Assembly: GCA_031409275.1 (NCBI GenBank)
Contig: JANNXA010000040.1
Span: forward strand, 96,001-160,000
Direction: 5' to 3'
Length of the DNA stretch: 64,000 nucleotides
Source: Planctomycetota bacterium
GTDB lineage: Bacteria; Planctomycetota; B15-G4; SIAN01
Shown here piece after piece: positions 12,607-56,322 of this stretch (positions within the stretch are counted from its first letter, which is position 1; each line of letters opens with the position of its first letter). Made by a program: the position numbers and the translations under genes. Under the pieces are notes generated by a model, which ran no database searches, had not been told where the DNA came from, and saw only the letters and a program-made list of their open reading frames with translations.

Positions 12607-12612
12607 CGGCCA

Positions 12613-12817
12613 TCCTCCGCATCACCGTTGCACGAAGAGACGTTGCTCGTCGTGACGGGTGACGCCCACCGCTCCTATCGGCGCTTCGGGAGGATCCGCC
12701 AAGCGGAATCTCTTCCGCTTGCCTGACCATTTGAGGAGCCAACCCAGACGCACCACCGCTGGTGGCTGCCGGCATTGACCCCACTACCGATCGTGGTCGG
12801 CCGCACTTCCGGGAGGT
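12613..12817 (-). ncRNA. Candidate structured non-coding RNA (possibly 6S-like)
   Basis: About 205-nt gap between same-strand genes. Perfect 9-bp hairpin at 12700-12721 (GAGA tetraloop on - strand), long imperfect hairpin at 12735-12782, partly complementary ends (12614-12619 vs 12810-12816). Identity not established. Confidence 0.35.
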
Positions 12818-12841
12818 CGTCAGCGCGAACTCAGGCCGCGC

Positions 12842-13876: not shown

Positions 13877-13907
13877 CAGAGGAGTCTCTTCGAGGATTCT
13901 TTGGATC

Positions 13908-14993: not shown

Positions 14994-15056
14994 GGCGCGG
15001 AGCATATGATCCGCGCCCCGTTTCGACCCGACACGACCTCGCGAGACGAATCCTCC

Positions 15057-17423: not shown

Positions 17424-17508
17424 GCGATCGGCTGCAACGGCGCGCCGCTGACCCACTGCATGGCCAGCGGCGCGCCGCCGCGAAACTCCGAAGCGAGGCG
17501 GCTCGACC

Positions 17509-19740: not shown

Positions 19741-19929
19741 GCCAGCTCCTTCTTTCGATGCAACGACCCGCGCCGCGCACTCGCGCGACCGGACCACGGA
19801 GTAGCAGGTCGGCTCGATCCCGGATACGGGTGACCCCGACGCGCCCGGAGAAGCGCGGATCGAGCGGAAGGAGGGCGGCGTTCGACGGCTCGGAGCCGCG
19901 ATCTCACTGCTGAGAAGGCGCCACCGTCG

Positions 19930-22900
19930 TCACTTGCGCGCCATGAGCAGCCACGCGAGCAGATCGCGAACCGCGGCATCGTCGAGCAGGTCGCCGAAAT
20001 TGTCCGGCATCAGGGAGAAGCGGCTGGGTCGCTCTTGGTCGAGCGCCGCCAAGGGCAGCGTCTGCTCGGCGCCGCGCTCGTCGACGTAGACCAGCACCTT
20101 CGCTTCGCGGCGGCGCACCAGCACCGAGAGGACGTCTCCGCTCTTCAGGAAGAGGTTCGTCCGCGCGAATTGCGGATCGACGTTGCGATTGGGATCGAGC
20201 AGATCCTCGAGCACGCGCTCGAAGCCGCGCAGGCGGACGCCATCGAGCTGCGGACCGATCGTGGCGCCGATGCCGCCGATGGCGTGGCAGCTCGCGCAGT
20301 TCCTGGTGAAGAGCTGGGCGCCGATCGCCGCGTCGCCGCCGAATCGCGCGAAGCTCTTCTTGCGAGCCGCGAGCAGCTTCACGCGCGCCTCGTCTTCGCT
20401 CGCGAGCCCCTTCGTCAGCGCCTCGATCCGCGCCGCGCCGTCCTGCGGCAGCGAAGCGACCAGCGCGTCCCGACACGCCGGCTTGGCGAGCAGCGCACGA
20501 GCGGCCTTGCCCTGCTCGACGAGTTCGATCAAGCGCTGCGCTCCCTCCGGTGCTCGCGCCCACGCCACCGCGATCGCGAGCTGCTGGCGGCTCGGGCAGA
20601 GTTCGACGGCGCGCGCCGCCACATCGGCCAGGAGCGACTCATCGGGCGCGACGCCGGGCGCCGACGGCGCGGCGAAATCAGCGAGCCCCGCCGCGATCGG
20701 CTCGATCAACTCGCGTGGCGCATCGGGATCGTCGAGCAACTCCGCCAACGCGCTGGCCACCGTCGGCCAACTCGGCCCGCGCGCCGATGCCAGCAGCGCC
20801 GCGGCGGCCGCGGCGCGCACCCTCGGCTCGGCGAGCGGTGAACGAAGCAGCGCCGCCAGCGGCGCTTCGAGCGAACCGTCGCGAAAGCGGCGCGCCACGT
20901 CGCATGCCGCGACCAGCTCGTCGCTCGTTTCCGCGGGCGAGCGCTCCGGCATCGCGACCACCGCCGGCTCGAAGCGACCGAGCGCGATCCATGCGTAGGC
21001 GTCGTAAGGATTGGCGTCGATCACCTCGAGGACCACCGCTCGACCCGCGGCCGCCGCGAGATCGAGTTCGACTCGCTGCGCCAGGTCGTTGCGCGGCGCG
21101 AGGAGCTCGGCAAGGAGCCTCGCATCCTCCGCATCGACGACGCGCACCTTGTTGAACGGAATCGCCGCGCGATCGGTCTCGCCGTTGTGGCCCGCGATCC
21201 AGAAGGCGAGCGTGGAGGGCGCCTCGAATGGCGGCGAGCGCAGTGCGCCGGTGCGCGCCTCGCCGCGCGGCAGGCTCGAGAGGAACGGCGCCTCGACACC
21301 ATCGGCGCTGCGGCGAACCTGCAGGCACCACGGGTTCGCGCTCTTGCCCGCGCCGGCGACCGCCTCGTTGCGCCACGCCGGTGCGCGCGCCTCGCGCTGC
21401 ACGAGCGCTGGAGCGATCAACGCCTCCGCCCAGCCTGAAAGCGCCGGGATCGGCGTCCCGCCGCGCGCCTCGAGCCCTTGCAGCATCGCCTGCAGCAGCG
21501 CGAGCTGCGTCGCTCGCTCGTCGCCGAAGCGCGCCTGCACGGCAGCGACCAGACGCGGCAGATCGCGCGGCGCGGCCTCGCGTGCCGCGTGTTCGAGCAG
21601 CGGCGTGATGCGCGCGCGATCCGTGAGCTTCAAGGCTTGCTCGATCAGGAAGCGACCCGCCGCTTCGCCGTGGAGCGCGAGCGCGAGTTCGACCACAGCG
21701 GCGCGCGTCGCCGCGTCGGGTGAAAGGTCGTCGACCCGATCGAGCGCACCGGGCAGATCGAGGTGGGCGCGCAACGCGAGCTTCAGCGCATGGCGCAACA
21801 TCGGGTCGTCGACCGAGACGCGGGCGAAGGCGTCGATCAGAGGGCCGAGCGCTGCGAGCGTCGGCAGCCGTTGCAGCGCATGGGCCGCGGCACGCACCAC
21901 GAACGGATCGGCGTCGCGCAGCGAAGCGATGAAGTCGCGTGAGTCGCGCGGAACCGCGAGGCTCCCGCCGCTGGCGCGACCGAAGAGACCGCGCGAATGC
22001 ACGCCCTCCACCACCGCGATCTCGGCGAACGCCTGCAGAGCCGTCCACTTCGGCAGCAGCGGCAGTTCGTCGGCGAGGCGGACGAGGTCGCTCGGGGCCA
22101 GTCGAAAGAGCGCCCACATCAGCATGGTCGCACGCTGGGGACTCGGTGGCGAGGCGTTGGCGGCGGCGGCGCGTTCTATGTGCCAGGCGCGAAGCGCCGT
22201 CACGACGGCCTCGGTCGCGAACTCGTCGCCGAGCCGATCGGTCAGCTCGTCGAGCGCCCGCATCCGCACGCCGAGGTTGCGGTCGTCGAATCGCGCGATC
22301 AAGCCGTCGACATCGGCGCGGCGCAGGTCGAGGCGCAGCGACGAGGCGTCGCCGCCCGGCGGCGCGATGCGCCAGATGCGGCCGCTGGTGCGATCGCGTC
22401 CCGGATGGTCGAGCGGTACCTCGTAGTGGCCGATGATGCGGTTGTAGAAGTCGGCGACGTAGAGCGCGCCGTCGGGCCCGATCTGCAGGTCGACCGGCCG
22501 GAACCACGGATCATCGCTGACCACGAGATCGGGCTGCTCGACGGCCATCGGCGTCGAACCATGCCATTCGAGGTGGTCGCGATGGACGCGACCGCTCATC
22601 ACGTTGCCGACGAAGAGGTCGCCTGAGTACTGCGGCGGGAAGGCGCCGCCCGTCTCGATGGCGAGGCCGCACAACGCCGTCGAGCCGTGCAGGTGCTTCA
22701 TCACCTGTGGCGCGAAGCCGAGCCCGTCGTGCGGCGCGCCGAAGCTCTCGTAGCAGGCGCCCTGCAGCAGCATGGTGATCGGCAGCGTGTGGCAGTCGGC
22801 GGTGAAGAGGTCGCCGCGCTCGTCGAACGCGCTGCCGAACGGGTTGACCTGGCCCTGCGTGAACTTCTCGATGTGCGAGCCGTCGAGCTTGAAGCGATAG

Positions 22901-36954: not shown

Positions 36955-37260
36955 TGGCGCGAAGCGAACCGCGAAGTCGACTTCGTCGCCCGCGCCGGCA
37001 AGACGCTGCTGGCGATCGAAGTGAGAAGCGGCGCCGCGAAGGGCGCGCCGCCGGGCCTGACCGCGTTCACCGCGAAGTTCCGCGGCGCGAAGGTACTGCA
37101 AGTCGGCGGCAGCGACGGCGTGTCGCTCGAAGATCTCTTGGCGAGCGAGGTGGAGACGTGGTTGGCGGGTTGGGGGGGGAAGTCCCGGGCGCGCTACGGC
37201 GCGCTGCCGCCGCCCGTCTCGAGGGTGACACGGCTCCCAACGCCGCGTTCGGGCCGGTAG
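36955..37260 (+). pseudogene. C-terminal remnant of an AAA+ ATPase / DUF4143-like protein
   Basis: After an in-frame TGA (36952-36954) the frame reads WREANREVDFVARAGKTLLAIEVRSG...GLTAF, matching the YWR...EVDF...IEVKS tail of this family. There is no room for an upstream ATPase domain. Confidence 0.65.
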
Positions 37261-37414
37261 TGCAGCAGCTCGAACCCGGTCACTCGGCCCGATGCGTGCT
37301 TCATCAGGACGACCTCGCGCGTCGTCTCCTCGCAGATCGCCTCCTTGGTGGGGTCGTCGGTCCAAATCGTGAGCGTGTGACCGGCGAGATCGTGAAACAC
37401 CCGGCCTTGTCCAT
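37194..37414 (-). pseudogene. Frameshifted DUF2283-like small antitoxin
   Basis: ATG 37414 (MDK) is one base out of frame with RVFHDLAGHTLTIWTDDPTKEAICEETTREVVLMKHASGRVTGFE. The span is 221 nt; adding one base restores MDKxRVFHD. Confidence 0.6.
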
Positions 37415-37494
37415 GTCCGCTCCCCCACCTTGATCGCATCGGTCGGATCGGCCGTGATCAAGGACCCGCCAGCCCCTTCCGGCCGAACCACCGG
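37405..37494 (-). pseudogene. C-terminal remnant of a DUF4258-like toxin partner
   Basis: Reads VVRPEGAGGSLITADPTDAIKVGERTWTR, like the LITAYPTD.IK.GE..W ending of small toxins upstream of DUF2283 genes. Overlaps the antitoxin ATG; N-terminus missing. Confidence 0.45.
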
Positions 37495-37643
37495 CGGCCC
37501 TCGCCGCCGCGTTTCGCTCCCTGAGGCGTCCGAACGGAGCGCCGCCGTGATCTAGGCCTACTCAGACTCGCGCAACCTGCGAACGTACGCTAAGAGATGC
37601 CCCCCTCGCGCGACCGAATCCGCCGCTGCCCGTCGGAGGTTGG

Positions 37644-38030
37644 ATGGACGCTCACGACCCTTGGTGGCTTCGATCGACCCTCAACGCCAAAGCTGCGCGG
37701 CGTCTGACGACGATGGAGCCGAAGCTCTGCGTTCCGGCGGCGTCGCGGACCTACTACGCGCTGTTCCAGGCATGCATCGCTCACTTCGAAGCTGCCGGGA
37801 AGCAGGCGTCCGATTTCGGATCGAACGAGCAGCGGTGGCGCCACACGCCGGTCATGAACAACCTCAACGCGGTGCCGCGACTTTGCGCGCTTGGGAAGCA
37901 CCTCAAGTCCCTGTTCATCAAGCTGCGAAGTCGACGCGAGAATGCCGACTACGGCCCGGAGCTGCCGGAAGACGACGACGTGATCGCCGATCTCCACGAA
38001 CTGGAACGACTCCTCCCTCAACTCAAATGA
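37644..38030 (+). CDS. HEPN-domain protein (UPF0332-like), putative RNase toxin
   Basis: AASRTYYALFQA (cf. SRAYYAxF) and C-terminal RENADY (RxxADY); 128 aa, looks helical; GGAGG RBS at 37635-37639. Confidence 0.75.
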   Translation: MDAHDPWWLRSTLNAKAARRLTTMEPKLCVPAASRTYYALFQACIAHFEAAGKQASDFGSNEQRWRHTPVMNNLNAVPRLCALGKHLKSLFIKLRSRRENADYGPELPEDDDVIADLHELERLLPQLK

Positions 38031-38043
38031 ACCCGCGCCGCCG

Positions 38044-38619
38044 ATGAATGACCACCCTTCAATCGCCGAGCTCATCCTCAGTCGTTTTCGCGACGAGCGG
38101 TTCGGCCTCGACGTGACTGCCTGCCACGGAGTCGACCCTGAGACCGGCAACTCTCGGATCGAGATCCACGCGTTCCACGACGGTCGGGGCGATCGCCGTT
38201 CCGTCGAATCCCAGTTCTTCGACACCCTTGCCTCCATCGATCTCTCGGGTCAGACGGTTGATGTCGCCGGCGAACTCCACCCTGCGACGGCTACGACAGC
38301 TATCCGCGCTTCCGTGATCGCGCGAGAACTCATCCCGTCGTACATCGCGCTGCGCGCGGAGCCCTGCGCAGCGCAGCCCATCCGAGACAGATGGAGTCTT
38401 TCGTCGATCCGGACGGGAACGGCATCGCTCGAATCGAGGTCGACACATCGCATCGACTTTGCGATCCGCGATCTCTCCTCGACCGTCTTGGTAGATCTCG
38501 GCCCCCACGCTTCTAGTGGCGCATCACTCGCATGGCGTTTCAGTGGTCCACATCGTTGGACCCTGGCTTCAGACGCTGTGAACTCGCGAGACGGCAGCGA
38601 ACTCGGAGCCGCCGCATGA
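38044..38619 (+). CDS. Putative antitoxin: degenerate MNT-like N-domain plus Ser/Thr-rich aromatic tail ending ELGAAA
   Basis: Starts 13 bp after the HEPN stop; its own stop overlaps the secB-like ATG (ATGA 38616-38619). Function inferred from position and sequence pattern only. Confidence 0.55.
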   Translation: MNDHPSIAELILSRFRDERFGLDVTACHGVDPETGNSRIEIHAFHDGRGDRRSVESQFFDTLASIDLSGQTVDVAGELHPATATTAIRASVIARELIPSYIALRAEPCAAQPIRDRWSLSSIRTGTASLESRSTHRIDFAIRDLSSTVLVDLGPHASSGASLAWRFSGPHRWTLASDAVNSRDGSELGAAA

Positions 38620-39101
38620 GTTCCGCTCCAAGAGCGACAGAAGGTTTCAAGGTCCACGCGATCTTGCTCGAGCGCTCGAGTTTCGCGCGGCACCTGCAAG
38701 CCGAGTCCAAGTCAGGGACGTCCGGTGCGCAAGGACACTTCGATCTCGACGTGAAGCGGAACCTGCCGCCGACCCCCATCACTCGCCGATTCACTGAGTC
38801 ATTGACCGTCACCGCACGGGGACTCATCGGAAGCGTCGAGACTTGGAGAGCGGAAGCGACCTACCTCGGCGAATTCGAACTCGCCGAGGACTCCGAGGTG
38901 TCGATCGAGTCAGCGACCACCGTTCATGTCCCCGCACTCCTTTACGGATTCGCCCGCGAGCATCTCGCCGACCTCACCCGCAGGTCGCTCGTCGGCCAGC
39001 TGATGCTGCCGCCGATGCGATTCGTCGAAGACGAGGCGCAAGCGGAAACGGTGGCGGACGTTCCGGTGCCCACCGCCAAGAAGCAGCCGCGCAAGCGGTG
39101 A
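38616..39101 (+). CDS. SecB-like chaperone
   Basis: 161 aa; HVPALLYGFAREHLADLTRRSLVGQLMLPPMRF parallels the SecB signature P.ILFPYARE.I.....R..FP.L.L.P.NF; also KVHAILLERSSF and ATYLGEF strands. Confidence 0.8.
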   Translation: MSSAPRATEGFKVHAILLERSSFARHLQAESKSGTSGAQGHFDLDVKRNLPPTPITRRFTESLTVTARGLIGSVETWRAEATYLGEFELAEDSEVSIESATTVHVPALLYGFAREHLADLTRRSLVGQLMLPPMRFVEDEAQAETVADVPVPTAKKQPRKR

Positions 39102-39154: not shown

Positions 39155-41926
39155 TCATGGTGGATCGACGACCTCGACCCATGCGATGAGTTCCGTCGAG
39201 TAACTGCCGCCCTCCACCACCAGCTGGCGATGGAGCAGCTCGCGCTCGAGCATCGGTTCGATCGCCGCGAGCAGTCGGTGGGCATCAGCTCGCGTGGCGG
39301 ACGGAGACGCAGGTGTTCCGGCATCGAGCACGCCCGATCCGAGGCGCTCGAGTGCGACGTGACGCACGCCGTCGCCCGTCACCGCAAGCGAGACGAGTGA
39401 CGTTCGCTGCTCCGCCCCTCGCCGTTCGGACTGCACACGCCAGACGGAGAGAACGCCCGGACCGACCGGATGCCGCAGCGCGACACCAACCTCGCCGGGT
39501 TCGAGCGTCCCCGCCTTGCGGATCGCATCGGCCACCAATGGGTGGTCGAGGCCCAGCAGTTCGAGCCCGTCCTCGTTCCTCGACCGTTCGCGATCGAGCG
39601 TGAATCGCCGCGACTTAGCACCGTCGCGTTCGACAACGACGCACTCGCCGCCTTCGCGAACCTCGAGTGCTCGGCCATCGAGTTCGAGCGACGCGCTCAG
39701 GAATCTCCTCATCCGCTCCAACCCCGGCTTCACGTCCGCGAACGGCTGATAGTCATCGAGCGAGAAGCCGTCCAAGTCCTGGAACAGTTCGAATACGACC
39801 TTGCGCGCGACCCGGGCGTTGTCGAGCGCCGCCGCCAGCTCCTCCTCCGTCCGTCGCAGGTCGGGGTCGTCCAGCGCCTCGCGGTAGAGGCGGTCGTACG
39901 ACAGCCGCTCGGAAAGCTGTCCCAGCACCTGACTGCGCAAGTCCTCGGCGACGTTGCCGTGCTCGTCGACCTTGCCGAGCGTCTTCGCGATCTCGCCCAG
40001 CTTCTCGTCGAGCAGCAGGTAGATGCGCCCCTCGATCGTGTCGGAGAGGACGAGGTTGTAGACCTGCGCGGTGTGCTTCTGCCCATAGCGATGGATGCGC
40101 CCGATGCGCTGCTCCATGTCCATCGGGTTCCACGGCAAGTCGAAGTTGAAGAGGATCCTCGCGAACTGCAGGTTGATCCCCTCGCGCCCCGCTGCCGTGC
40201 AGACGAGCACTCGCGGACCGTCGGCCCGCTTGAAGCGCTTCTCCGCGGCCAGCTTGGAGCCGTGGTCGCCGCCGCGCAGGACGACGACGCCTTGGCCGGG
40301 AAACGTGCGAGTGATCTCCTGCTCCAGGAGTTCCACCGAGCCGAGGTAGGTCGCGAAGATCACGACGCGTTCCGACGGGTCCTGCCGCCACAGCTCGCCG
40401 AGGCCGCGCAACAGCTTCTCGACCTTTGTCTCGGGTTGAGTCGGGAACGCCTGCAGCAGATCGCGGATGCGCAGGCGCTCTTCGGGCAACGCGAGGTTCA
40501 CCGCCATGGCGGCCACCTCTTCGCCGCCCACTGCTGTCAGCTCACCGGCCGCGGTATCGGCCGCCTGTTCGAGTTCCTCGTCATCGAGCCGCTGGAGGAG
40601 CTTGAGCCTCAGCTCGGCGACGATCGCATCGACCTTGCCGGTGCCCACCTCATCGCGAGGGATCCCGTGCTCTTCGTGCACGAGATCGCGGGCTTCGGCG
40701 TGGAGCTGCTGGCGCGCGTCAAGGTCGAGTTCACGGTCCCTCAGGATCGCCTCATGCAGCGTCAGCATCAGCAACCGGCGTCGCAGCGTCCGGCGGACCG
40801 CGGCGAAGCTCGATGCCGCGATCTTCTGGAAGATCGTCATCACGAAGCCGAGCGCGCGCCCCTCGTTGCCGCGCCGATTCGCCAGCGCGAAGCCCTCCTT
40901 CAGGTAATCGTTCAGCGCCACGTAGAACGCGCGTTCGTCGGAGTCCATCGTGAACGACTCGGTACGCACCTGCCGACGCGCGAAGAGCGGCGCCCCATCC
41001 GGACGACACGCGTCCGCCTTCGTTCGCCGGAAGACCACGGAATTGAGTCGGTGGCGATTCTCGACCATGTCCTCCGCGCTGAGGAAGAGCGTCGGATCGA
41101 GCAGCTGCACCAGCATCCAGAAGCGGAAGTGGTCGCCCTGGTGCGGCGTCGCCGACAGCAGCAGCAGGTCGCGCGAGTGCTCCTTCAAGGCCTCGGCGAG
41201 CTTGTAGTTCTCGGTCTTGCGCGTCCGCTTGCCGCTCTGGAACGCAGAGAGGTGGTGCGCTTCGTCGAAGACCACCAGGTCCCAGCGCGGCGCGTCGAGC
41301 AGCCGCTTGATCCGCGCCGGCCTCTTCAGCGTGTCGATGCTGGCGATCAGACGGTCGTGCTTGGCGAAGGCGTTCGACTTGCGGTCGGTCACGTCCCCTT
41401 CGCTGCCGAAGACCTCGAATCCGAGCCGGAAGACCTCGTTCATCTCGCGGTGCCAGTTGTTCACCAGACCGGCCGGCACCACCATCAACGCGCGGTCGAG
41501 CTCCCCGCGGCTGGCCAGCTCGCGCAGCACCAACGCCGTCTCGATGGTTTTGCCGAGCCCTACTTCGTCGGCGACCAGGAAGCGTCGCGGGGAGGCCGTC
41601 GCGATGCGATGGGTCAGGACGACCTGATGCGGCAGCAGGTCGATCGGAGCAGCGGTCAGGGCGGCAGCACTCTCGATCAGCGGCAGCGCATGGGCCTCGT
41701 GGACCAGCCACGCCGTGCGGCGACGCGCCTCGCTCGACGCGACCCCGGCGACCACTCGGTCGGCGCGCGATTGGAACGGCTGCACCTCGGCCAGCGCGAC
41801 CTGTCGTTCACCGACGGAGAAGAAGACGCGCAGGTAGTCGTTGCGCGCAGGAGCAAGGACGACCCCCTCGCCGAGTTCGGCGTGGCGAATCCGGGCGCCG
41901 GGCACGAAATCGGGCGAGCGCTCCAT
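39155..41926 (-). CDS. SNF2/RapA-like SF2 helicase
   Basis: LLPHQ, LVADEVGLGKT, DEAHH, SATPHQG, AGREGINLQ, LPWNPMDMEQRIGRIHRYGQ. Start ATG 41926. Confidence 0.92.
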   Translation of the reverse strand: MERSPDFVPGARIRHAELGEGVVLAPARNDYLRVFFSVGERQVALAEVQPFQSRADRVVAGVASSEARRRTAWLVHEAHALPLIESAAALTAAPIDLLPHQVVLTHRIATASPRRFLVADEVGLGKTIETALVLRELASRGELDRALMVVPAGLVNNWHREMNEVFRLGFEVFGSEGDVTDRKSNAFAKHDRLIASIDTLKRPARIKRLLDAPRWDLVVFDEAHHLSAFQSGKRTRKTENYKLAEALKEHSRDLLLLSATPHQGDHFRFWMLVQLLDPTLFLSAEDMVENRHRLNSVVFRRTKADACRPDGAPLFARRQVRTESFTMDSDERAFYVALNDYLKEGFALANRRGNEGRALGFVMTIFQKIAASSFAAVRRTLRRRLLMLTLHEAILRDRELDLDARQQLHAEARDLVHEEHGIPRDEVGTGKVDAIVAELRLKLLQRLDDEELEQAADTAAGELTAVGGEEVAAMAVNLALPEERLRIRDLLQAFPTQPETKVEKLLRGLGELWRQDPSERVVIFATYLGSVELLEQEITRTFPGQGVVVLRGGDHGSKLAAEKRFKRADGPRVLVCTAAGREGINLQFARILFNFDLPWNPMDMEQRIGRIHRYGQKHTAQVYNLVLSDTIEGRIYLLLDEKLGEIAKTLGKVDEHGNVAEDLRSQVLGQLSERLSYDRLYREALDDPDLRRTEEELAAALDNARVARKVVFELFQDLDGFSLDDYQPFADVKPGLERMRRFLSASLELDGRALEVREGGECVVVERDGAKSRRFTLDRERSRNEDGLELLGLDHPLVADAIRKAGTLEPGEVGVALRHPVGPGVLSVWRVQSERRGAEQRTSLVSLAVTGDGVRHVALERLGSGVLDAGTPASPSATRADAHRLLAAIEPMLERELLHRQLVVEGGSYSTELIAWVEVVDPP

Positions 41927-41933
41927 CGACCGC

Positions 41934-42451
41934 CTACGAGATTCGTTGCAGGTGGAGGCCGACGTACGCGTCACCGTCGAGGTCGGGGCTCTTCTCCGTC
42001 GAGTCGAGGATGCGCGCCACGTCGGCCTCGGCGCCGCCGAAGAGGCAGCGACCGAGCGGCAGCAGTTCGGCGGACCGATCGACCGAGGAGCGCCAGCGGT
42101 ACGACTCGTCGGTCGAATCCATGGTGATGCGCTTGCGTCCGGAAGGCAGCCAGAAGAGGAGCGCCGCTTGGCCCGCGTAGTGGTCCTGGAACTCGAGGAT
42201 CGAGCTCCTCAGGTCCTCCTCGAGCCATCGCTCCGCGTCTGCCGCCGCCAGCGCATCGAGGCAGCCTTCGAGACCCGCGACGACCAGTGCGTCACCCGAC
42301 GTCGCCGGGAGAGTCGACGGCCACTTCGACTGCAGCCGGAAGTACTGATGCATCGACACCACCGCCGGCAGCTCGACGACGCGAGCAAGCGCTTGCGGGC
42401 TCCAGAGCAGCGACACCCCCTGCCGTTGCCAGCTCGAATGGCGAATCGTGT

Positions 42452-42455
<4 letters not shown>
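41934..42455 (-). CDS. Hypothetical protein within the defence operon
   Basis: GTG start overlaps the methyltransferase stop; ends 7 bp before the helicase ATG; globular-looking alpha/beta sequence (LVVAGLEGCLDAL). Confidence 0.75.
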
Positions 42456-45685
<3,230 letters not shown>

Positions 45686-45688
45686 GCG

Positions 45689-46720
45689 TCAGCTCCCGCC
45701 CGGCCGCGACAGCTCGAGGAACGGCACTGCGACCTCCAGCAGCGACAGCCCGCCATGGGTCAGCGTCGGGTAGCCGCCCGGGCTCTTCCACTTGCGCCGA
45801 CCCAGCACGAAGCGCCGATCGCCGTGCGCGGTCTGCAGCTGCACGTCGAGCGGTGGAACCCAGCCAGGCTCGCCGCCGGAGGCACTTCCGGAGGTGCTCT
45901 CCGTGGTCGCTGCCGAACGGCCGCTCTTGAATCGTTCCTTCAGGTACTGCGCTTGGGCCGGATCGCTGACGTCGGGGAATCCGGCGCTCTCCGCGTAGCC
46001 GTGGTCGGCGGTGATGACGAGGCGCCTGCCGGTGGTGAGCTGTCGCACCAGATGCCAGAAGGGGTCGCCGAGAAGATGGCGACTGGCCTCGTCCGCCAGT
46101 GACTTGAGCACAGGTCCGGGCCCAGCGAGGTCGTGTACCCGATCGTCGGGCCAACCATGCCAGAGGATCCAGTCCGGAGTTGCGTCGATCATCCGCGCGC
46201 ACTCCTCCCAAGGTGCGGACGTCGATTCCGTCTTCGCGCCGCGCAGGCGTCCGGTGACGCCGCTGCCGCCGCTCTCCAACGCGCTCCGACCGGAAAGACC
46301 GAGCGCCTTGGCGAAGGGCGTCGTTTCCGCGGGCAATTCGGCGGCGGTCGGCCGCGCTTGGTGGACCACGTAGCCGCGAGCCCCTGCGCCTTGCAGCAGC
46401 CACGGCAGCTCGCGCAACGAGAGCGCATCGAGGATCAGGATCGCCCGCGCCGAACGGCGTTGCTCCCACCACTCGATCAGCGCCGGCGCAGTTCGCGGCG
46501 CGGCACGCTCGTACTCGACCCAGAGGTCCCATGCCGCCGTAGCGAGGAAGAGGTCGACCGGTGCGAGCGCAGCGTCGCGTTGCGAAGCAGCTTTCGCGGC
46601 GTCGTTCGCCGACAACGGCGCCGCGAAGCGCTGCCACGCGTCGTCGAGCAGCGCCGCCCAAGCCTCCTTCGGCGAAGCGGATTGGAGCGCGCGCAGAAGC
46701 GGCAGCGGCAGCGAGGTCAC
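45689..46720 (-). CDS. Minimal PglZ-like (alkaline phosphatase superfamily) protein
   Basis: Metal-binding motifs LILDALS, PAETTP, ITADHGY and THGGLSLLEVAVP in PglZ order; only 343 aa. Confidence 0.8.
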   Translation of the reverse strand: MTSLPLPLLRALQSASPKEAWAALLDDAWQRFAAPLSANDAAKAASQRDAALAPVDLFLATAAWDLWVEYERAAPRTAPALIEWWEQRRSARAILILDALSLRELPWLLQGAGARGYVVHQARPTAAELPAETTPFAKALGLSGRSALESGGSGVTGRLRGAKTESTSAPWEECARMIDATPDWILWHGWPDDRVHDLAGPGPVLKSLADEASRHLLGDPFWHLVRQLTTGRRLVITADHGYAESAGFPDVSDPAQAQYLKERFKSGRSAATTESTSGSASGGEPGWVPPLDVQLQTAHGDRRFVLGRRKWKSPGGYPTLTHGGLSLLEVAVPFLELSRPGGS

Positions 46721-49452
46721 GACTCTTCCTTGTTGAGCGTGAGTTCGTAGGTGACGCCGTCGGGGAGCTTCTTCAGCAGATCGTTCAACTGCGCGCCGGT
46801 CATCACGCCGACCCGGATCTGGACATCCTGCACGCGCGTCCCCGTCCGGATCCCCCAGCTCTCGACCTTGCCCATCAGGTTGAGCGCCGAAGTCGCGGTC
46901 ACCGAGCTCAGCGGACGAAGCGGTCGCGGGCCTTGGAAGAGATCGCCGCTGTTGCCGGTGGCGGGTCCGGTGGGTGCCGGTGCGATCGCCCGGTCGATCA
47001 GGCGCTGCTCGTCGCTCGGAATCACGTAGCCCACGGGACGCGGCGAGTCGGGAGATGCCGTCGGGTTTGCATTCGGGGCTGCATTCGTGCCGACCATCCC
47101 CTCCGCGCGCGGGCTCGCCTGCGGCAGGCGCATGGGCGACTCGTCCAGATGACGGCCGCTGCCAAGCTTCCCGCGGATCCGTCGGTAGGTCGCGTCGGCT
47201 TCCTCGCCGGGATCGGCCTGCAGCAGCTCCATCCCGCGGAGGTCGACGGCGACTTCACCCCGCGCGCAGCACCAGAGGAGCTTCTCCTTCATCGCGGCTT
47301 CGCCGAGCCACGCAATCGACCGCGCACCACCGGGTCGTGGCTCCTGCAGTTCGCGCAGGAAGCCGCCGACCGACTTGCTCTCCTTCGCGGCCTGACGCAC
47401 CAACTCGGAGAAGTCCTCGGCCACGAAGAGATCGCGGGCGACCAGCTTGTGCACCTCTTCGGGAATCGCCGAGCCCTCGACCCGATGCGATTCGACGCGG
47501 AAGGTCGAGCGCTCTGGCTCCTGGAACGACCAGCTCTCCACGATCGCGAAACGGTCGAAGCGCTTGGCCAGGACATCGCGCAGCTGCCGCTCGTGCTTCT
47601 GCTGGAGCTTTCGGTACTCCGGGCTCTGCGCCTTCCAGGCGTCCGCCAGGTGGATGGCCCGCGCCAGGAACTTCAGCGGCGGCTCGTAGAAGAGGTTCGG
47701 GCTGCCGTCGCGTGGCACGAGGAAGCGCACCGCGTTGCGCCGCGAGCCGAGCCGGTTCCGCAGCCACTTGCCGAGGGTTGCTTGCAAGTCGCCGGACGGA
47801 GCCTCGGGCAACACCAGCAACGGGATGCGCTCGTCCCAATGGTCGGGCAGGTCGCGCTCGTCGAGGCCGCGGAACGGGTCGTTCTCCCAATCGGCGGCGA
47901 GGACGACGACCCGGAATAGCGGGATCGCCTCGTCGGAGCCGCCGATCACGTAGCGCACCTCGCGGGCGAGACGCTTCAGGTCCTCACCGCCCTCGAACAG
48001 CCGCTGGTTGCGCGCGTTGGCGAACAGCTTCGCCTGCGGATTCTCTTCCTCGCGAAAGACGAGGCGTTCGCCCTCCTCGTGGATGTTGAAGCTGTTCTCG
48101 ATGATCCGCTGCAGCTCGACCCCGAAGCCGTTGACATCGAGCGGCTTGCCGCGCGTGAGGTCGACTTGCAGCTCGGCGCGCGTTGCGCCGGCGTTGCGCA
48201 GAGCCAGCGAGCGCAGCCAGAGTGACGCGACGATCTCCTCGAGGTGGGGCACGTCCTCCTTGGGAACCGTGACGGCGTCGCGCACGGCGCTCAGGTTCCG
48301 CTGCGCCTTCTCGCGCAGCGTCTGGTACTGGAGGTTCGACACCGAGTCGAGCAGGGCGGCGACCCCGCTCTTCGTGTCGTCAAGCAGGAAGTCGGCCGGC
48401 GTGATCAGCGGCGATACCTCGCCGCGCGACTTGTAGACCGCAGCCAGCACCTTGATCAGGTCGCGCGTCTCCTGCGCCTGAGTCGCCTTCAGGACCTCGT
48501 CCTCGAGCAGCGTCATCAACGTCGGCGAGAAAGGCCACGCCTCGACGAACTCGCGGCGCACGCGCTCCTGATCGGCGGGCGCGATCCCGGCAATTCGCAG
48601 GTGGGTGTCGACGTGCGCCGTGATGAGGGTCTCGATCGATGGCGCCGCCACTTGCAACCGGTTCGTGAAGAGCCGGTGCAGCAGTAGCCGAAGACGGTCG
48701 ACGCGCTTGCGCGGGCCCTTGAAGTCGATCAGCTGCGGGTTCATCCGAGCGATCTGCTGGAAGGCGTCCGACTCGCCATTGCGTACCGAGACGACCAGCA
48801 CCAGCAGGTCGGGGTGCTCGCGCGCGATGTCGGTGAGGATCTGGACGAAGTTGAAGGCCCAGGCGCGTGCCGGGATCTGCTTGCTGTTCGAGAGCCCGTC
48901 GAACCAAGTTTGGTACTCGTCGAGGATCAGTGCCGTCGGCTGCTTGCGGAAGAGTTCGAGGAGCAGGTCCGAACCCGGCATGTCGGTCTTGCGCGCGCCC
49001 TGCGAGTCCCACATCCCGCGTACGTATTCGCCGTGCGGGTGCCTCTCGAAGAGCAGGTCCCAGAGGAACTTGAAGCTCTGGCGGTGGAGACTCTCACTGA
49101 TGACGTGCATGCCGGAGCGCAAACGCAGCGACGCCGGTCGGGGGTCAGCAAGGCGCTCGGACCACTCTGCCAGCCAGCGGCGCGTCTCCTCCGGGCTGGT
49201 CAACGCATGGTGCAGCGCCGCCAGTAGGTGCGACTTGCCGAGCCCGCGCTCACCGATCAGGACGACTGGCTTCCCCGTTCCGGGGCCGGTCGCCTCGATC
49301 GCCTGCAATACGTCAAACGTCGGATAGGTGATCGCAAGGTGCGCGGACGCAGCGATCTGGATCGCACCCGTCCTCTCGCGGTTCGAGAACTCGATCGCCG
49401 TGCCTTCGAGGCGACGGCTCTTGAACTCTTCGCGGAGCATCAGGCCGAGCAT
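46717..49452 (-). CDS. Large P-loop ATPase (DUF499/BrxC-like)
   Basis: ITYPTFD, Walker A GERGLGKSH, Walker B LILDE, WPFSP..., QETRDLIKVLA; first gene of the coupled operon. Confidence 0.8.
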   Translation of the reverse strand: MLGLMLREEFKSRRLEGTAIEFSNRERTGAIQIAASAHLAITYPTFDVLQAIEATGPGTGKPVVLIGERGLGKSHLLAALHHALTSPEETRRWLAEWSERLADPRPASLRLRSGMHVISESLHRQSFKFLWDLLFERHPHGEYVRGMWDSQGARKTDMPGSDLLLELFRKQPTALILDEYQTWFDGLSNSKQIPARAWAFNFVQILTDIAREHPDLLVLVVSVRNGESDAFQQIARMNPQLIDFKGPRKRVDRLRLLLHRLFTNRLQVAAPSIETLITAHVDTHLRIAGIAPADQERVRREFVEAWPFSPTLMTLLEDEVLKATQAQETRDLIKVLAAVYKSRGEVSPLITPADFLLDDTKSGVAALLDSVSNLQYQTLREKAQRNLSAVRDAVTVPKEDVPHLEEIVASLWLRSLALRNAGATRAELQVDLTRGKPLDVNGFGVELQRIIENSFNIHEEGERLVFREEENPQAKLFANARNQRLFEGGEDLKRLAREVRYVIGGSDEAIPLFRVVVLAADWENDPFRGLDERDLPDHWDERIPLLVLPEAPSGDLQATLGKWLRNRLGSRRNAVRFLVPRDGSPNLFYEPPLKFLARAIHLADAWKAQSPEYRKLQQKHERQLRDVLAKRFDRFAIVESWSFQEPERSTFRVESHRVEGSAIPEEVHKLVARDLFVAEDFSELVRQAAKESKSVGGFLRELQEPRPGGARSIAWLGEAAMKEKLLWCCARGEVAVDLRGMELLQADPGEEADATYRRIRGKLGSGRHLDESPMRLPQASPRAEGMVGTNAAPNANPTASPDSPRPVGYVIPSDEQRLIDRAIAPAPTGPATGNSGDLFQGPRPLRPLSSVTATSALNLMGKVESWGIRTGTRVQDVQIRVGVMTGAQLNDLLKKLPDGVTYELTLNKEES

Positions 49453-49715
49453 TCGTCAGGCTCCGTAGGTCGTGAATCGGCGGCAGGTTAGCGCGAAGCG
49501 TCCGCAGCGTCGCCGGTCTCGATCCCCTCCGGCAATGCGAAACCGTGGACTGGCGAGCGCTAGGCCGAGAAGCACCCGCTGGCGAGAGTGCGGTCACGAG
49601 CGCATCCTCCAAAGCGAGTTCGAAGCCGGTCGGTCCAGATGGTCGACTCACTGACCGTTCGATGCGGTTTTCCCTTAGCCACGCCCCCGCCACCTCCTCC
49701 CTACCACCCCCCTTC

Positions 49716-50972
49716 ATGGCCCTCGCCTCCCCCATCGCGTGGACCGACACGACTTGGAACCCGGTCACCGGGTGCGACAAGGTGAGCCCGGGCTGCACGC
49801 ACTGCTACGCCGAGCGGATGGCGACGCGGCTCGCGGCGATGGGGCAGGCCAACTACGCGCGCGGGTTCGAGCTGACGCTGCAACCGGCGATGCTGGAGCT
49901 GCCGCTCCGGTGGCGCAAGTCGCGGCGGATCTTCGTCAACTCGATGAGCGACCTGTTCCACGACGAGGTTCCGCTCGACTACGTGCGACGGGTCTTCGAC
50001 GTGATGCAGCGCGCGAGCTGGCATGAGTTCCAGGTGCTCACCAAGCGAGCGGAGCGGCTGGCGCAGGTCGCTTCGCTGCTGCCCTGGCCGCGCAACATCT
50101 GGATGGGCGTCAGCGTCGAGAGCGAGAAGTTCGTCGCGCGCATCGAGGCGCTGCGGACGGTCCCGGCGGCAGTGCGCTTCCTTTCGCTCGAGCCGCTGCT
50201 CGGGCCGCTGCCGGCGCTCGATTGGCGCGGGATCGACTGGGCGATCGTCGGTGGCGAGTCGGGGCCGGGCGCGCGGCCGCTCGACCCGGCGTGGGTGCGC
50301 GACCTGCGCGAGCAGTGCGCCGCCGCGCGCGTCCCGTTCTTCTTCAAGCAATGGGGTGGTGTGCGGAAGAAGGCGACCGGCCGCGTGCTGGATGGCCGGA
50401 CGTGGGACGAGTTGCCGACGCCCCAAGTCGATCGGAGTCCACGCGACGGCTGCATGCCGGCAGGCGTTGAATCGCGGCTTCCGCCTTTGCACTCTCACGT
50501 TCCACCGTCCCGGCCCCCTCGCTCCTCGAAGGACGCCGCCCCCATGCCCTCCTCCCCCATCCCCTCCTCCTTCGACGACTTCGAGCAGGAGCAGCGCTCC
50601 TTCGACCTGATCGATCAGCACCGCGCCGCGCTCGCCGCCGAGGCGGTGCGCATCGCGCGGGAGGCGCCGGACGCGGCCGTGGCCGGGCTCGCCGGGCTCA
50701 TCGTGACGGCGGAGGCGCCCGAGGCGGAGGCGCTGCTCGCCGCGATCGGGTTGCCGGAGGAGGCGGCGCGCAGCGGCTTCCTCGGCATCGTGCCGCGCGA
50801 GCTGGCGGCGGCGATCCTGCGCGACGTGGCGATGGAGGCGCTCGACGAGCTGGTGCGCCTCGAGGCGAAGGTGGCGGCGGGAGCGCGGCCGTTGGCGATC
50901 GTGCTGCTGGCGAAGGAGGGGCTGCGACTCGGGCTCGCGAGCTACGAAGCGGAACCGACGGCAGGTGGTTGA
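49716..50972 (+). CDS. DUF5131 (phage Gp37/Gp68-like, radical-SAM-like) protein reading through into a second hypothetical ORF
   Basis: [68 protein letters not shown] (about 50416). No stop until 50972. Confidence 0.85.
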
Positions 50973-51474: not shown

Positions 51475-54400
51475 TCACCGGAAATCACGCGACCGCGTCG
51501 CGAGCCGCCGGACCTGCTCGCTCAGGTCGGCGACGCGCTCGGCGAGCAGGTGCACCACGTCGCCGACGCGTTCCACCTTGCCCCGGACCAGCAGGAGGCG
51601 GCCGCTGATCACGGCCAGCCGATGCCTCTGTTGTTCGCGCTCGCGCACGATGACGTTGGCGACGCCGCTCTCATCCTCGAGCGTCATGAAGAGCACGCCC
51701 GACGCGGTGCCGGGCTTCTGGCGGTGCAGCACGAGGCCGGCGACGGCGGTGCGCGCGCCCTGCAGCGCGCGCGCCAGCACGCTGCACGGCGCACCGCCCA
51801 GCTGCGCCACGCGCGAACGCAGGAAGCGCAGCGGATGGGAGTGGAGCGTCAGCCCGGTCAACGCGTAGTCGGCGACGACGAGCTCCTCTTCGCGCGGCGG
51901 CGGCAAGGACGGCGCGGCCACCGTGTCGACCACCGCTTTCTCGAAGAGCGGCGCCGCTTCGCCCGCTGGCGCCGCCTGCCACCACGCCGCGCGGCGATGC
52001 GCCGCCAACGCCCCGAACGCGCCCGCCTCGGCCAGCAGGCGCGCGTCGCGCCGGGGAAGCTGCGCGCGCCGCGTCACCTCCTCCACATCGACGAAGGGCT
52101 GCTGCGCGCGCGCCGCCAGCAACCGCGCGACGCTCGCCGGCGACACGCCTTTGATCAGCTGCAATCCCAGCCGCAACGCCGGCACGGCCACTCCGCCGGC
52201 ACGGCCATCGACTTCGAGCGTCGACTCCCACGCGCTCGCAGCGACGTCGACGGCGCGCACCTCGACGCCATGCGCCCGCGCGTCGCGCACCAGCTGCGCC
52301 GGCGCATAGAAACCCATCGGCTGGCTGTTCAGCAGCGCGCAGGTCAACGCCGCCGGATGGTGGCACTTCAACCAGCACGACACCCAGGTCAGCAGCGCGA
52401 AGCTCGCCGCGTGGCTTTCGGGGAAGCCGTACTCGCCGAACCCCTTCAGCTGCTCGAAAAGGCGCCGCGCGAACTCGTCCGAGTAGCCGCGCGCCAGCAT
52501 CCCGTCGACCAGCTTCTTCTCGAAGCTCGCGATCAGGCCAGGCCGCCGCCACGCCCCCATCGCGCGCCGCAGCAGATCGGCCTCGCCCGGAGTGAAGCCG
52601 GCGGCGACCACCGCGAGCTTCATCGCCTGCTCCTGGAAGATCGGGACGCCGAGCGTCTTCTCCAGCACCGCCTTCACCGCTTCGGAGGGGTAGTCGACCC
52701 TCTCCTCGCCGGCGCGCCGTCGCAGGTAGGGATGGACCATGCCACCCTGGATCGGACCAGGCCGCACGATCGCCACCTGGATCACCAGGTCGTAGAAGCA
52801 GCGCGGCTTCAAGCGCGGCAGCATCGCCATCTGCGCACGGCTCTCGATCTGGAAGGTGCCGATGGTGTCGGCGCGCTGCACCATCGCCCAGGTCGCCGCG
52901 TCGTCCGCCGGCACGTTCGCCAGCGTGAGCTCGACGCCATGCACCGCGCGCACCAGCTCGAAACAGCGACGGATCGCGGAGAGCATCCCGAGCGCGAGGC
53001 AGTCGACCTTCAGGATCTTCAGCGCGTCGAGATCGTCCTTGTCCCACTGCAGGACGGTGCGCCCCTCCATCGCCGCGTTCTCGATCGGACAGAGCTCGTC
53101 GAGCCGTCCGCGCGTCATCACCATGCCGCCGACGTGCTGCGAGAGGTGACGCGGGAAGCCGTGCAGCTCGCGCGCCAACGCGACCACGCGACGCAAGGTC
53201 GCGTCGTGCGGATCGAAGCCCGCTTCGCGCAACGTCGCATCGGGCCAATCCGCTTCGTCCCAGCCGTGCAGCACGCCGGCCAGCCGCTCGACCTGATCGA
53301 GCGAGAGGCCAAGCGCCTTGCCGACATCGCGCACCGCGCTGCGCCCTCGCCACGTGATCACCGTGCCGGTCATCGCGCAGCTCTCGCGACCGTGACGCTC
53401 CCACAGATGCTGCAGCACCTCCTCGCGCCGCTCGTGCTCGAAGTCGATGTCGATGTCGGGCGGCTCGTTGCGATCCTTCGAAAGGAAGCGTTCGAAAAGG
53501 ACGTCGAAGCGATCGGGATCGACCGAGGTGACGCCCAGGCAGTAGCAGACCGCCGAGTTGGCCGCGCTGCCGCGCCCCTGGCAGAGGATCCCGCGCCCGC
53601 GCGCGAAGCTGACCAGCTCATGCACGGTGAGGAAGTAGCTCTCGTAGCGCAGCTCCGCGATCAAGCGCAGCTCGTGGACGAGGAGCTTCTGCACCTTGTC
53701 GGGGATGCCGCCCGGCCAGCGCGCGCGCGCGCCGGCCAGCGTCAGCTCGGTCAAGCGCGCGTGGTCGCCCTCGTCGGGATAGGTGTAGCGCAGCTCGTCG
53801 AGGCGGAAGGTGCAGTGCTCCGCCACGTCGAGCGTCCGTTCGAGCAGTTCGAGGCGGCCGCGCGACCCGCCGGCGCCGCCAGGACCGTAGAGGCGTCGCA
53901 GTTCGGCGAGCGGCCGCAGCGGGCGCACCCCTTCGGTCGGCACGCGCTCGCCGAGTTCGGCCACGGTGCAGCCGTGACGGATGGCGAGGAGCGTGTCGCG
54001 CAGCGCGCGGCGCGCCGGGTCGTGCGTCTCGACCGCGCCGGTCGCCACCAACGGCAGCCGCGTCGCCGCGGAAAGATGATCGAGGCGCGCGAGGCGAGCG
54101 CGATCGTCGGGGCCGTCGGCGAGGTTCGCGGCCAGCCACGCACGCTCGCCGAACAGCTCCTGCAGCCAACGCAGCCGCAACGCCGCGTGCGCCAGCTCCG
54201 CCGCGCCGGCCCGCGGAGCCAATGCCGCCTCGTCGGGCAATCCGATGGCGAGCAGCCCTTCCGCGTGGTCGGCGAGCAGCGCGCGATCGAGCCGCGCCTC
54301 ACCTTTCGGAGCGGCGCGTCTTCCCGCCGTGATCAAACGCGCGAGGCGCCCATAAGCCGCACGATCGGTGGCGTAGAGCAGCACGGTCGCGCCATCGATC

Positions 54401-54726
54401 AGCGCCACTTCGCTGCCGATCAGCAGCTTCAAGCGCGGGGGCTGACCGGCGGCCGGCGCCGTCGCCTGCGCCGCGACATGCGCGCGCACGACACCTGCCA
54501 ACGAACACTCGTCGGTGAGCGCGAGCGCGTGATAGTTGAGGGCCGCGGCGCGCTCCACGAGTTCGTCGGGATGGGAGGCGCCACGCTGGAAGGTGAAGTT
54601 GCTGACGCAGTGCAGCTCCGCGTAGCGCAGGAACGGTTCCGAAAGCGGCGGCGCCAGCGGCGCCTGACGTGACGGCGCCACGGTCGCCGGATGGGGATGG
54701 CGCTTCTTGCGCGGCAATTCAGGCAT
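51475..54726 (-). CDS. dnaE2: Error-prone DNA polymerase DnaE2 (ImuC)
   Basis: YAELHCVSNFTFQRGASHP, GRGSAANSAVCY, PPDIDIDFEH, FPRHLSQHVGG, YGFPESHA, C-terminal SRDFR. Confidence 0.96.
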   Translation of the reverse strand: MPELPRKKRHPHPATVAPSRQAPLAPPLSEPFLRYAELHCVSNFTFQRGASHPDELVERAAALNYHALALTDECSLAGVVRAHVAAQATAPAAGQPPRLKLLIGSEVALIDGATVLLYATDRAAYGRLARLITAGRRAAPKGEARLDRALLADHAEGLLAIGLPDEAALAPRAGAAELAHAALRLRWLQELFGERAWLAANLADGPDDRARLARLDHLSAATRLPLVATGAVETHDPARRALRDTLLAIRHGCTVAELGERVPTEGVRPLRPLAELRRLYGPGGAGGSRGRLELLERTLDVAEHCTFRLDELRYTYPDEGDHARLTELTLAGARARWPGGIPDKVQKLLVHELRLIAELRYESYFLTVHELVSFARGRGILCQGRGSAANSAVCYCLGVTSVDPDRFDVLFERFLSKDRNEPPDIDIDFEHERREEVLQHLWERHGRESCAMTGTVITWRGRSAVRDVGKALGLSLDQVERLAGVLHGWDEADWPDATLREAGFDPHDATLRRVVALARELHGFPRHLSQHVGGMVMTRGRLDELCPIENAAMEGRTVLQWDKDDLDALKILKVDCLALGMLSAIRRCFELVRAVHGVELTLANVPADDAATWAMVQRADTIGTFQIESRAQMAMLPRLKPRCFYDLVIQVAIVRPGPIQGGMVHPYLRRRAGEERVDYPSEAVKAVLEKTLGVPIFQEQAMKLAVVAAGFTPGEADLLRRAMGAWRRPGLIASFEKKLVDGMLARGYSDEFARRLFEQLKGFGEYGFPESHAASFALLTWVSCWLKCHHPAALTCALLNSQPMGFYAPAQLVRDARAHGVEVRAVDVAASAWESTLEVDGRAGGVAVPALRLGLQLIKGVSPASVARLLAARAQQPFVDVEEVTRRAQLPRRDARLLAEAGAFGALAAHRRAAWWQAAPAGEAAPLFEKAVVDTVAAPSLPPPREEELVVADYALTGLTLHSHPLRFLRSRVAQLGGAPCSVLARALQGARTAVAGLVLHRQKPGTASGVLFMTLEDESGVANVIVREREQQRHRLAVISGRLLLVRGKVERVGDVVHLLAERVADLSEQVRRLATRSRDFR

Positions 54727-54747
54727 CGATGCGCCCTCGCGACCGCC

Positions 54748-56322
54748 TCAGCAGAACGAGCCGTGGCAGAACCAGCCGCCGCCGACGCGATCGCGGAAGA
54801 GCCAGCGGCGCTGTCCGTCCGGCGCCTCGACCTCGAAGTAGTCGCGCTCCACGTCGCGCCCATCCCACCAGCCGCCCGCGACCCGCTCCGGTCCGCGCAC
54901 CACTCGCAGCCGCTCGCCGCGCGCGCCGGTCTCGGCGCAGGGCGCGCCGCGTTCGTCGCACTCGATCGCGCAAGGTTGCGGCGGCTCGATCAACGTGAAG
55001 GGACGCGCGCCCAATGGCACGGCCCACGCGGCATTCGCCCGCGCGCGGCCATCCGCCGCGGCGACGCGTGGCGCGGCCGCTTCGCAGAGCGCCTGCCAGC
55101 GAAACGCGCGCTCGGGGCGCGGATCGGCGAGCAGTTGCGCCCCTTGCACCCGCTCACGACCGAGCCGCACCGCCAGTCGATCGGCCAACGCAGTCGCCGC
55201 CCGCTCGCCATCGCGATCGCGCTGCTGCGCGAAAAGCGGCCCCTGTTCCGCGGCGCACTCCACGCGCTGCGTGACCGCCAGCCGCACCGCTTCGATCGGC
55301 CCGGGCAACGGCTGGCGCTCGAGTCGATGGGAGAGCAGCAACAGGAGCAGCTCGGGATCGCGCGTCGGCGTGGCGGGCGCCAGTTCGAGCAGCGTCGACG
55401 GGCCTCTTCTCACCGGCACGAAAGAGAAGGTGGCGCCGGCCCATGCTTCGTTGCGCCGCTCGAGCTCGAGGCACGCCGACTGCAGCAGCCGTTCGCAAGC
55501 CACGAGCAGCGGAGCGCACTCCTGCACGGCGGCGGGCAGCTCGATCTCTTCTTCCAGCCGCTCGGGCACGACGATGCGCACCAGCGGCTCTTCGAGTTCG
55601 CCCAAGAGTCGCTGCAGCTGCTGCACGAAAGCGATCGAGGTGCGCGTCGCGAGGCCGGCGCGCGGCAGCGCAAGGAGCTCGCGCAACGTTCCCACCCCCA
55701 ACGCACGGCAGGCCCCCTCCACTGCTGGTGCTGGAGCCAGCGCCTGCCACGGCAACGCAGCGAAGAGCTCGCGCGCGGCGGCCGGCTCCAGCGTGGCGTT
55801 GGGCGCGTGGCGAGGCGCCGGGTCGCCGGCGAGTTCACTGGCACGCGCCAAGGTACGCGCCGCCTCGGACGTATCGGCAACGGCGATCTGCGCGTGATGG
55901 CCGGCGCGCTGGCACGCCGCGATCACCGTCGCAACCAACGCCTGCTCGCCGCCGAAGTGGAACGCGGTGCGCCCCACTTCGAGCGCCAGCGCGGCGGTGC
56001 CAGGCGCATCGGTCGGCCCACCGTCGAGACAGACATCGGGCGTGAAGCGCAGCAGCGCCACGGCGAGCCGCGCCAGCGCGCGCGCATCGGCCGCCGGATC
56101 GGCGCGCGCCACTTGCAGGCCCGCGCAAAGCGCTCGTGCCGCCGCCACCGCCTGCCCGGCACGCACGCCGGCCGCAAGCGCGGTGGCCGTCGCCGCGACG
56201 ATGCGTTCCCGTGCACCGTCACGCACCGACAGCGCGAACGCCGTCGTCGCGAGGGCCGGGCAGGCGCGCAGCCTCCGCTCCATGGCGAAGCGCGGCAGGC
56301 GCAGGCTCATCCAACGGATCAC
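54748..56322 (-). CDS. imuB: Y-family-like accessory protein ImuB
   Basis: GVRAGQAVAAARAL, LRFTPDV, DRLAVRLG, DPRPERA, GPERVAGGWWD...RDYF, WFCHG. Start uncertain. Confidence 0.88.
   Translation of the reverse strand: MIRWMSLRLPRFAMERRLRACPALATTAFALSVRDGARERIVAATATALAAGVRAGQAVAAARALCAGLQVARADPAADARALARLAVALLRFTPDVCLDGGPTDAPGTAALALEVGRTAFHFGGEQALVATVIAACQRAGHHAQIAVADTSEAARTLARASELAGDPAPRHAPNATLEPAAARELFAALPWQALAPAPAVEGACRALGVGTLRELLALPRAGLATRTSIAFVQQLQRLLGELEEPLVRIVVPERLEEEIELPAAVQECAPLLVACERLLQSACLELERRNEAWAGATFSFVPVRRGPSTLLELAPATPTRDPELLLLLLSHRLERQPLPGPIEAVRLAVTQRVECAAEQGPLFAQQRDRDGERAATALADRLAVRLGRERVQGAQLLADPRPERAFRWQALCEAAAPRVAAADGRARANAAWAVPLGARPFTLIEPPQPCAIECDERGAPCAETGARGERLRVVRGPERVAGGWWDGRDVERDYFEVEAPDGQRRWLFRDRVGGGWFCHGSFC

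Follow-up and report, generated by a model that had tools for sequence, protein, structure and literature searches.

The systems closest to the locus described here are the toxin-antitoxin-chaperone (TAC) systems HigBAC (M. tuberculosis Rv1957; E. coli NT1F31), MqsRAC and CmdTAC (PD-T4-9), and the type VII HEPN-MNT pairs. The toxins of HigBAC and MqsRAC are of the RelE/MqsR type and their antitoxins are HTH or zinc-finger proteins, whereas the CmdT toxin of CmdTAC is an mRNA ADP-ribosyltransferase. The accessible part of PMC3581621 sorts TAC antitoxins into HigA, MqsA, HicB, MqsA-like and HTH-like groups, and mentions TACs whose toxins have unknown function. According to the accessible text of Mets et al. 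(bioRxiv 10.1101/2024.02.24.581848), CmdA ends in Ala-Ala and is degraded by ClpXP, M. tuberculosis HigA1 ends in Val-Ala, both ends are ClpXP degrons, and the aromatic residues of the antitoxin tail dock in the chaperone. In canonical type VII pairs, of which we saw 16 loci, the MNT gene lies upstream of the HEPN gene and encodes the GS and SDxD residues. The available portion of PMC3710099 identifies the HEPN as the toxin of these pairs and proposes the Tyr of its conserved R..DY motif as the nucleotidylation site.

The locus lies in a window of 64,000 nucleotides (the whole stretch of planctomycetotal DNA that was analyzed), to which the coordinates below refer. The initial annotation proposed that three of its genes form a new TAC class, made of a HEPN toxin, a tailed antitoxin and a SecB-like chaperone. 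The features are as follows.

37635..37639, + strand: ribosome-binding site GGAGG of gene 1, seen in the sequence 4 nt 5' of the first ATG.
37644..38030, + strand: gene 1, HEPN-T protein (AF0298/UPF0332-like) of 128 aa, a likely RNase toxin judging from its family (PF05168; profile matches to 9xbd and 2hsb).
38044-38619, + strand: gene 2, whole ORF, 191 aa.
38044..38328, + strand: core of gene 2 (residues 1-95), likely antitoxin and possibly a dead MNT-like domain (AlphaFold2 model, fold searches).
38329..38619, + strand: tail of gene 2 (residues 96-191), likely chaperone-addiction tail with a ClpXP degron (Ala-Ala end, aromatic residues).
38616..39101, + strand: gene 3, SecB-like chaperone of 161 aa (PF02556, family profile).
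39155..49452, - strand: context outside the module, with a DUF499 ATPase, a weak PglZ-like ORF (343 aa), a DUF1156-type methyltransferase, a 173-aa ORF and an SNF2 helicase.

The tight packing reported at first is present in full: three ORFs on the + strand, the ribosome-binding site, a spacing of 13 bp between genes 1 and 2 (38031-38043) and an ATGA overlap between genes 2 and 3 (38616-38619). An alternative in-frame ATG at 38532 would lengthen gene 3 to 189 aa, and we set its start at 38616 because the N-termini of the homologues agree with this position. The proposed excess of A/T-ending codons is present. The GC3 of genes 1, 2 and 3 (0.77, 0.68 and 0.76) is lower than that of six flanking host genes (0.86-0.92) and six other genes of the island (0.81-0.89), but of the three only gene 2 drops beneath the lower quartile (0.74) of a crude ORF set for the whole genome (median 0.84), which makes the signal a modest though real one. 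No sigma-70 promoter-like site was seen between 37300 and 39300, where the one terminator-like site lies within gene 2 and is at chance level, and no tRNA was found in the window. Divergent from gene 1 lies an 81-aa ORF (37194-37439, - strand) that matches no family and whose codon use resembles that of the host, which may resemble small DUF2283-type proteins.

The module is real, conserved and rare, and its best reading is a likely new class of TAC whose effector would be a HEPN protein. Of the conditions that the initial annotation named as refuting it, four were checked computationally and none spoke against it. Searching for the three-gene synteny, we found the toxin-antitoxin-chaperone order kept on a single contig in 12 other loci (L003, L009, L012, L014, L015, L016, L018, L019, L022, L023, L024 and L077), plus one split copy (two contig ends overlapping by 76 nt at 97%) and two decayed ones. 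The junctions span -10 to +8 nt in the 12 other trios, and -10 to +13 nt in the 13 loci that include the window, while the GC content of the trio loci seen goes from 35-40% to 68%. L077, where SecB runs off the contig end, is absent from all our profiles and was matched with E 6e-14 by the toxin profile and 7e-14 by that of gene 2. Within the window's class, the HEPN profile matches 3 of 42 genomes: that of the window, one with the same trio (G032) and one with an ordinary MNT-HEPN pair (G005). The collection scans gave four genome and seven metagenome loci, with the trio in four (L009, L012, L014 and L015), a HEPN and a short gene 2 in five (L005-L008 and L013), a decayed copy in L010 and one cut by the contig end in L011. 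A class search centred on G103 brought no new matching genome (1/17), and no relatives were found in viral contigs or plasmids.

SecB is itself rare in the phylum. The Pfam family occurs in 10 of 401 genomes sampled evenly across it, and its context is a whole trio in seven of these, a split trio in one, an ART-like toxin in one and a contig edge in the last. A chaperone profile of our own, with a bias in favour of the trio class, matched 18 of the 401 genomes and added a held-out trio (G256), a decayed trio (G159), one MqsA-type TAC (TIGR03830 above cut-off) and five RelE/HigB-like plus HTH loci, read by eye, two of them with weak HigA matches below cut-off. In this last set (L080-L085), the MqsA-type TAC adjoins a BrxC-like gene, the five other loci also carry SecB, and two of the antitoxins end in LAA. 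The locus with the ART-like toxin (L017, 295-1875, 30% GC; a motif reading with no NCBIfam match) is CmdTAC-like, with a 175-aa partner ending in IIAA and SecB. Three more distant HEPNs (L043, L047 and L048) have other small downstream partners, and two of them follow housekeeping genes according to the ORF translations (cysteine desulfurase, rpoB).

The identification of gene 3 as SecB-like rather than housekeeping SecB is borne out by the profiles. It matches PF02556 (E 1.5e-8, 35.1 bits, cut-off 26), is the only SecB match in the 93%-complete host genome, and scores 28.7 bits against the housekeeping SecB TIGR00809 (cut-off 102.8), while remaining far below the cut-offs of four other SecB equivalogs. 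All 14 aligned chaperones match PF02556, and the profile of the family matches the solved SecB of H. influenzae and E. coli as well as M. tuberculosis Rv1957 (1fx3, E 3.7e-20; Rv1957 5mtw, E 1.7e-9). The chaperone of CmdTAC in PADLOC (PD-T4-9_C) is matched by 10 of the 14 chaperones in alignment A4; gene 3 of the window matches nothing in PADLOC, and a single-sequence search with it recovered only itself (1/33 candidates).

The tail of gene 2 (residues 96-191) has six aromatic residues, including three Trp, and ends in GAAA. Its presence follows that of the chaperone. Gene 2 has 131-195 aa when SecB is adjacent (n=13) and 91-133 aa when it is not (n=11), with medians of 173 and 108. It ends in Ala-Ala in 11 of the 13 loci with SecB and in none of the 11 without (Fisher p 3e-5, kinship ignored), and counting AA or VA ends the figures become 12/13 and 1/11 (L014 ends in VA, L024 in AG). 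A Trp beyond residue 95 is found in 13/13 and 1/11 loci, respectively. As background, the Ala-Ala end occurs in 31 of the 3251 ORFs of the host and in 1 of 14 canonical MNTs. For three of the 11 partners without SecB, membership in the gene 2 family is uncertain (E 0.03, 1.6 and 3.9), and excluding them leaves 0/8 with Ala-Ala. Downstream of the 11 short-partner loci, no SecB match was found in 1.1-3.7 kb. The count excludes L011, whose contig stops within gene 2, the split L020/L042, and L021, which is at a contig edge; L054, L058 and 16 matches without a locus in one list of 47 were not classified. The chaperone-free pairs of a HEPN and gene 2 (L005-L008, L013, L029, L033 and L057) form an unnamed toxin-first two-gene module, four of them with short basic tails.

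A toxin tree, built without L011, L036, L059 and L057 (whose toxin is truncated), shows that the SecB-bearing label needs seven changes, at least three of them forced by starred branches. The toxin of L012, which has tail and SecB, is sister to those of L005/L006, where gene 2 has 93 aa and SecB is lacking (support 97/89). When corrected for kinship, the association is left with 2-3 independent pairs on starred branches and none opposed, which is not significant (sign test p 0.25-0.5). In the decayed trios L010 (518-983) and L038 (1914-2619) the tail is lost, SecB is partly deleted and the toxin is intact, possibly a natural reversion to a plain toxin-antitoxin pair, even if these may be assembly errors. 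The reading of gene 2 as a putative tailed antitoxin gains support in that a long, Trp-containing, Ala-Ala-ending tail accompanies SecB, with the kin-corrected test falling short of significance. With these features, and with clpX among the genes of the host, the tail is likely a chaperone-addiction tail with a ClpXP degron.

The placement of the cassette in a defence island was also confirmed. The cassette faces the DUF499 ATPase/methyltransferase/helicase set (39155..49452), which resembles the BREX-related (Hma) system in the accessible text of PMC12839542. HEPN or SecB was found in none of four congeners, and in one of these (G039) the same site, behind an S8 peptidase gene, carries PDC-S01 and BrxC-PglY/PglZ/BrxD/BrxHI (L092, G039:C11:278000-297999, 8185-19986). 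The site of the cassette is a hotspot for defence genes, where BREX-type systems are swapped. Elsewhere in the window we noted a radical SAM protein (~49710-50400, + strand; weak TIGR04471 match), presumably Gp37/Gp68-like, and genes that we interpret as a pair coding for an error-prone DnaE2 and for ImuB (51475-56370, - strand). The wider flanks of 11 trio loci, read by eye from ORF starts, looked mixed: some neighbours are linked to tRNA genes, others are mobile, defence-like or housekeeping, and trios therefore do not as a rule sit in a defence island. One copy (L062, G103:C3) adjoins tRNA-Met, opposite a gene resembling a phage tape-measure protein, and may therefore be in a prophage.

The location of several relatives next to tRNA genes or among housekeeping genes, and the absence of any match between PADLOC models and the 19 toxins, would fit a true TAC that is not antiphage, namely a sensor of stress or export capacity, as proposed for the mycobacterial TAC in the available part of PMC4257090, or an addiction module carried by mobile DNA. 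We regard such a role as unlikely: the window's site swaps with BREX-type systems, MqsRAC, CmdTAC and HigBAC give phage protection in the accessible accounts of these systems, and the host has no other SecB, so that there would be no competition with the normal export clients of a housekeeping SecB.

The effector of the module would be gene 1, a likely RNase toxin. The two motifs initially taken as HEPN/UPF0332 signatures, SRTYYALF and RENADY (R98-Y103), are both present, and with the window protein the family comprises 31 sequences (30 homologues found), 26 of which match PF05168; the window protein alone has no Pfam match. The family profile matches 9xbd (E 2.9e-9), AF0298 2hsb (E 4.6e-7) and also 9xbc. 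Y37, H67, R98, D102 and Y103 are invariant in the alignment of the 31 sequences. The family assignment stood, but RENADY is not the canonical Rx4-6H motif: the R..DY motif could be placed in 39 of 40 HEPN rows, and in none of these 39 does a His come after the Arg. From these motifs, gene 1 is an AF0298/UPF0332-type HEPN, with R98-x3-DY and, upstream, H67 as candidate catalytic His, a residue that seems to be missing from the HEPNs of L042 and L038. In its accessible sections, PMC3710099 describes AF0298-like HEPN-T proteins without Rx4-6H and suggests an upstream His as a possible alternative site, which H67 fits. With the canonical motif missing, the RNase activity of gene 1 is putative. The literature searched yielded no assay of RNase activity in the AF0298-type subfamily, and the available part of the AbiV preprint is of no help on this point, as AbiV activity was mapped to an Rx4-6H segment. 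A weak PADLOC match of gene 1 to PDC-M05B (E 0.041) was dropped, as 0/19 toxins match PADLOC at E 0.001.

The core of gene 2 is a domain of ~95 aa with alpha-beta-beta-alpha-beta-alpha topology (AlphaFold2; pLDDT 85.3, pTM 0.75). It has no Pfam or NCBIfam family, and no Pfam family is common to 18 members. The gene 2 profile found nothing below E 0.47 among PDB sequences and six matches, without Pfam, among 1513 candidates. ESM Atlas gave no usable match for gene 2 and, for a homologue, only unnamed clusters under 0.9. Among the matches of the fold searches are mitoribosome chains, OsmC and C-terminal domains of transporters, none of which names the fold. The core, which gives a weak hhalign match to MNT (E 0.013, probability 3.3), may be a catalytically dead MNT-like fold, and it lacks the invariant GS and DxD residues; because this motif is absent, gene 2 would neutralize the toxin by binding and not by AMPylation.

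These fold matches, like the missing Rx4-6H, could also point to a HEPN that is not an RNase, being either an inactive or nucleotide-binding partner or one whose role is swapped with a toxic gene 2. We find this improbable, since H67, R98, D102 and Y103 are invariant in the 31 homologues whereas the gene 2 alignment has no invariant residue, the degron-like tail sits on gene 2 and its usual place is on labile antitoxins, and the HEPN is the toxin of HEPN-MNT pairs. That a HEPN pair lies by chance beside an unrelated solitary or housekeeping SecB, as the mosaic island and the lack of another SecB in the genome might suggest, is very improbable and largely refuted by the synteny, given the order and overlapping junctions kept in 12 other loci, the tail that accompanies SecB, the scores far under housekeeping cut-offs and the rarity of SecB in the phylum (10/401).

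The cassette is probably a TAC module, in which a HEPN RNase toxin would be blocked through binding by gene 2, itself stabilized through its tail by the chaperone. The analysis shows the three families, the conservation of their arrangement and tight spacing, the association of SecB with the tail and its Ala-Ala end, and the presence of clpX in the host. The functional steps are all inferred from HigBAC, MqsRAC and CmdTAC. The HEPN dimer would cut RNA, most likely rRNA or tRNA, using R98 and H67, and gene 2 would block the dimer by binding, as long as a tetramer of the chaperone holds its tail and keeps it stable. A phage protein with similar aromatic motifs would titrate the chaperone and expose the tail to ClpXP, which would degrade gene 2 through its terminal Ala-Ala, free the RNase and abort the infection. 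The trio is, on this analogy, likely a new chaperone-controlled toxin-antitoxin class that would act against phages.

Compared with the described TACs, the trio shares the gene order, a variable antitoxin and an Ala-Ala end of gene 2 with CmdTAC, and the order, the SecB-like third gene (5mtw match) and aromatic tail residues with HigBAC and MqsRAC, HigA1 of M. tuberculosis having a VA-type end. Unlike them, it combines a HEPN-T toxin with an unnamed alpha/beta antitoxin family, and none of the antitoxin groups of the accessible part of PMC3581621 is like gene 2. With the HEPN-T/AF0298 (UPF0332) toxins of type VII it has in common the family (PF05168; 2hsb, 9xbd), the R..DY motif, and a partner of comparable size and topology. 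The difference is that the partner lies downstream, without GS/SDxD residues and with a tail and SecB, and in the toxin tree a branch (87/97) separates the 14 canonical HEPNs from the group to which the trio belongs. A HEPN TAC class may already be listed in a 2025 TAC diversity survey (Nakamoto and colleagues) or in bioRxiv supplements. The suggestion that a HEPN effector is new among characterized TACs agrees with our check of PADLOC 2.0 and the literature searched, where none was found. In their accessible parts, none of the papers combining TAC, HEPN and SecB describes a HEPN TAC, the word HEPN is absent from the Mets preprint (bioRxiv 10.1101/2024.02.24.581848) and PMC4257090, PMC11980606 names only HigBA and MqsRA as TACs, and a 2026 preprint mentions SecB TACs in passing only.

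It is conceivable, and we propose it tentatively, that this undescribed TAC class arose from type VII HEPN-MNT pairs, with an MNT whose catalytic residues disappeared, whose gene came to lie behind that of the toxin, and which turned into an antitoxin acting by binding. The ClpXP-tagged tail and SecB would then have been gained or lost together several times, making a HEPN RNase that phages can trigger via a chaperone sensor, and this would be what SecB-like genes mainly serve for in a phylum otherwise poor in SecB. Close natural pairs that differ in having tail and chaperone or not (L012 vs L005/L006; the trio of the window vs L010) allow a direct test of how chaperone addiction arose, and the trio is a clean test case for RNA cutting via the upstream His in AF0298-type HEPNs without Rx4-6H. 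If the reading is true, the HEPN RNase would be a fourth kind of TAC effector, together with a new antitoxin family, and such a HEPN TAC would support chaperone addiction as a portable sensor.
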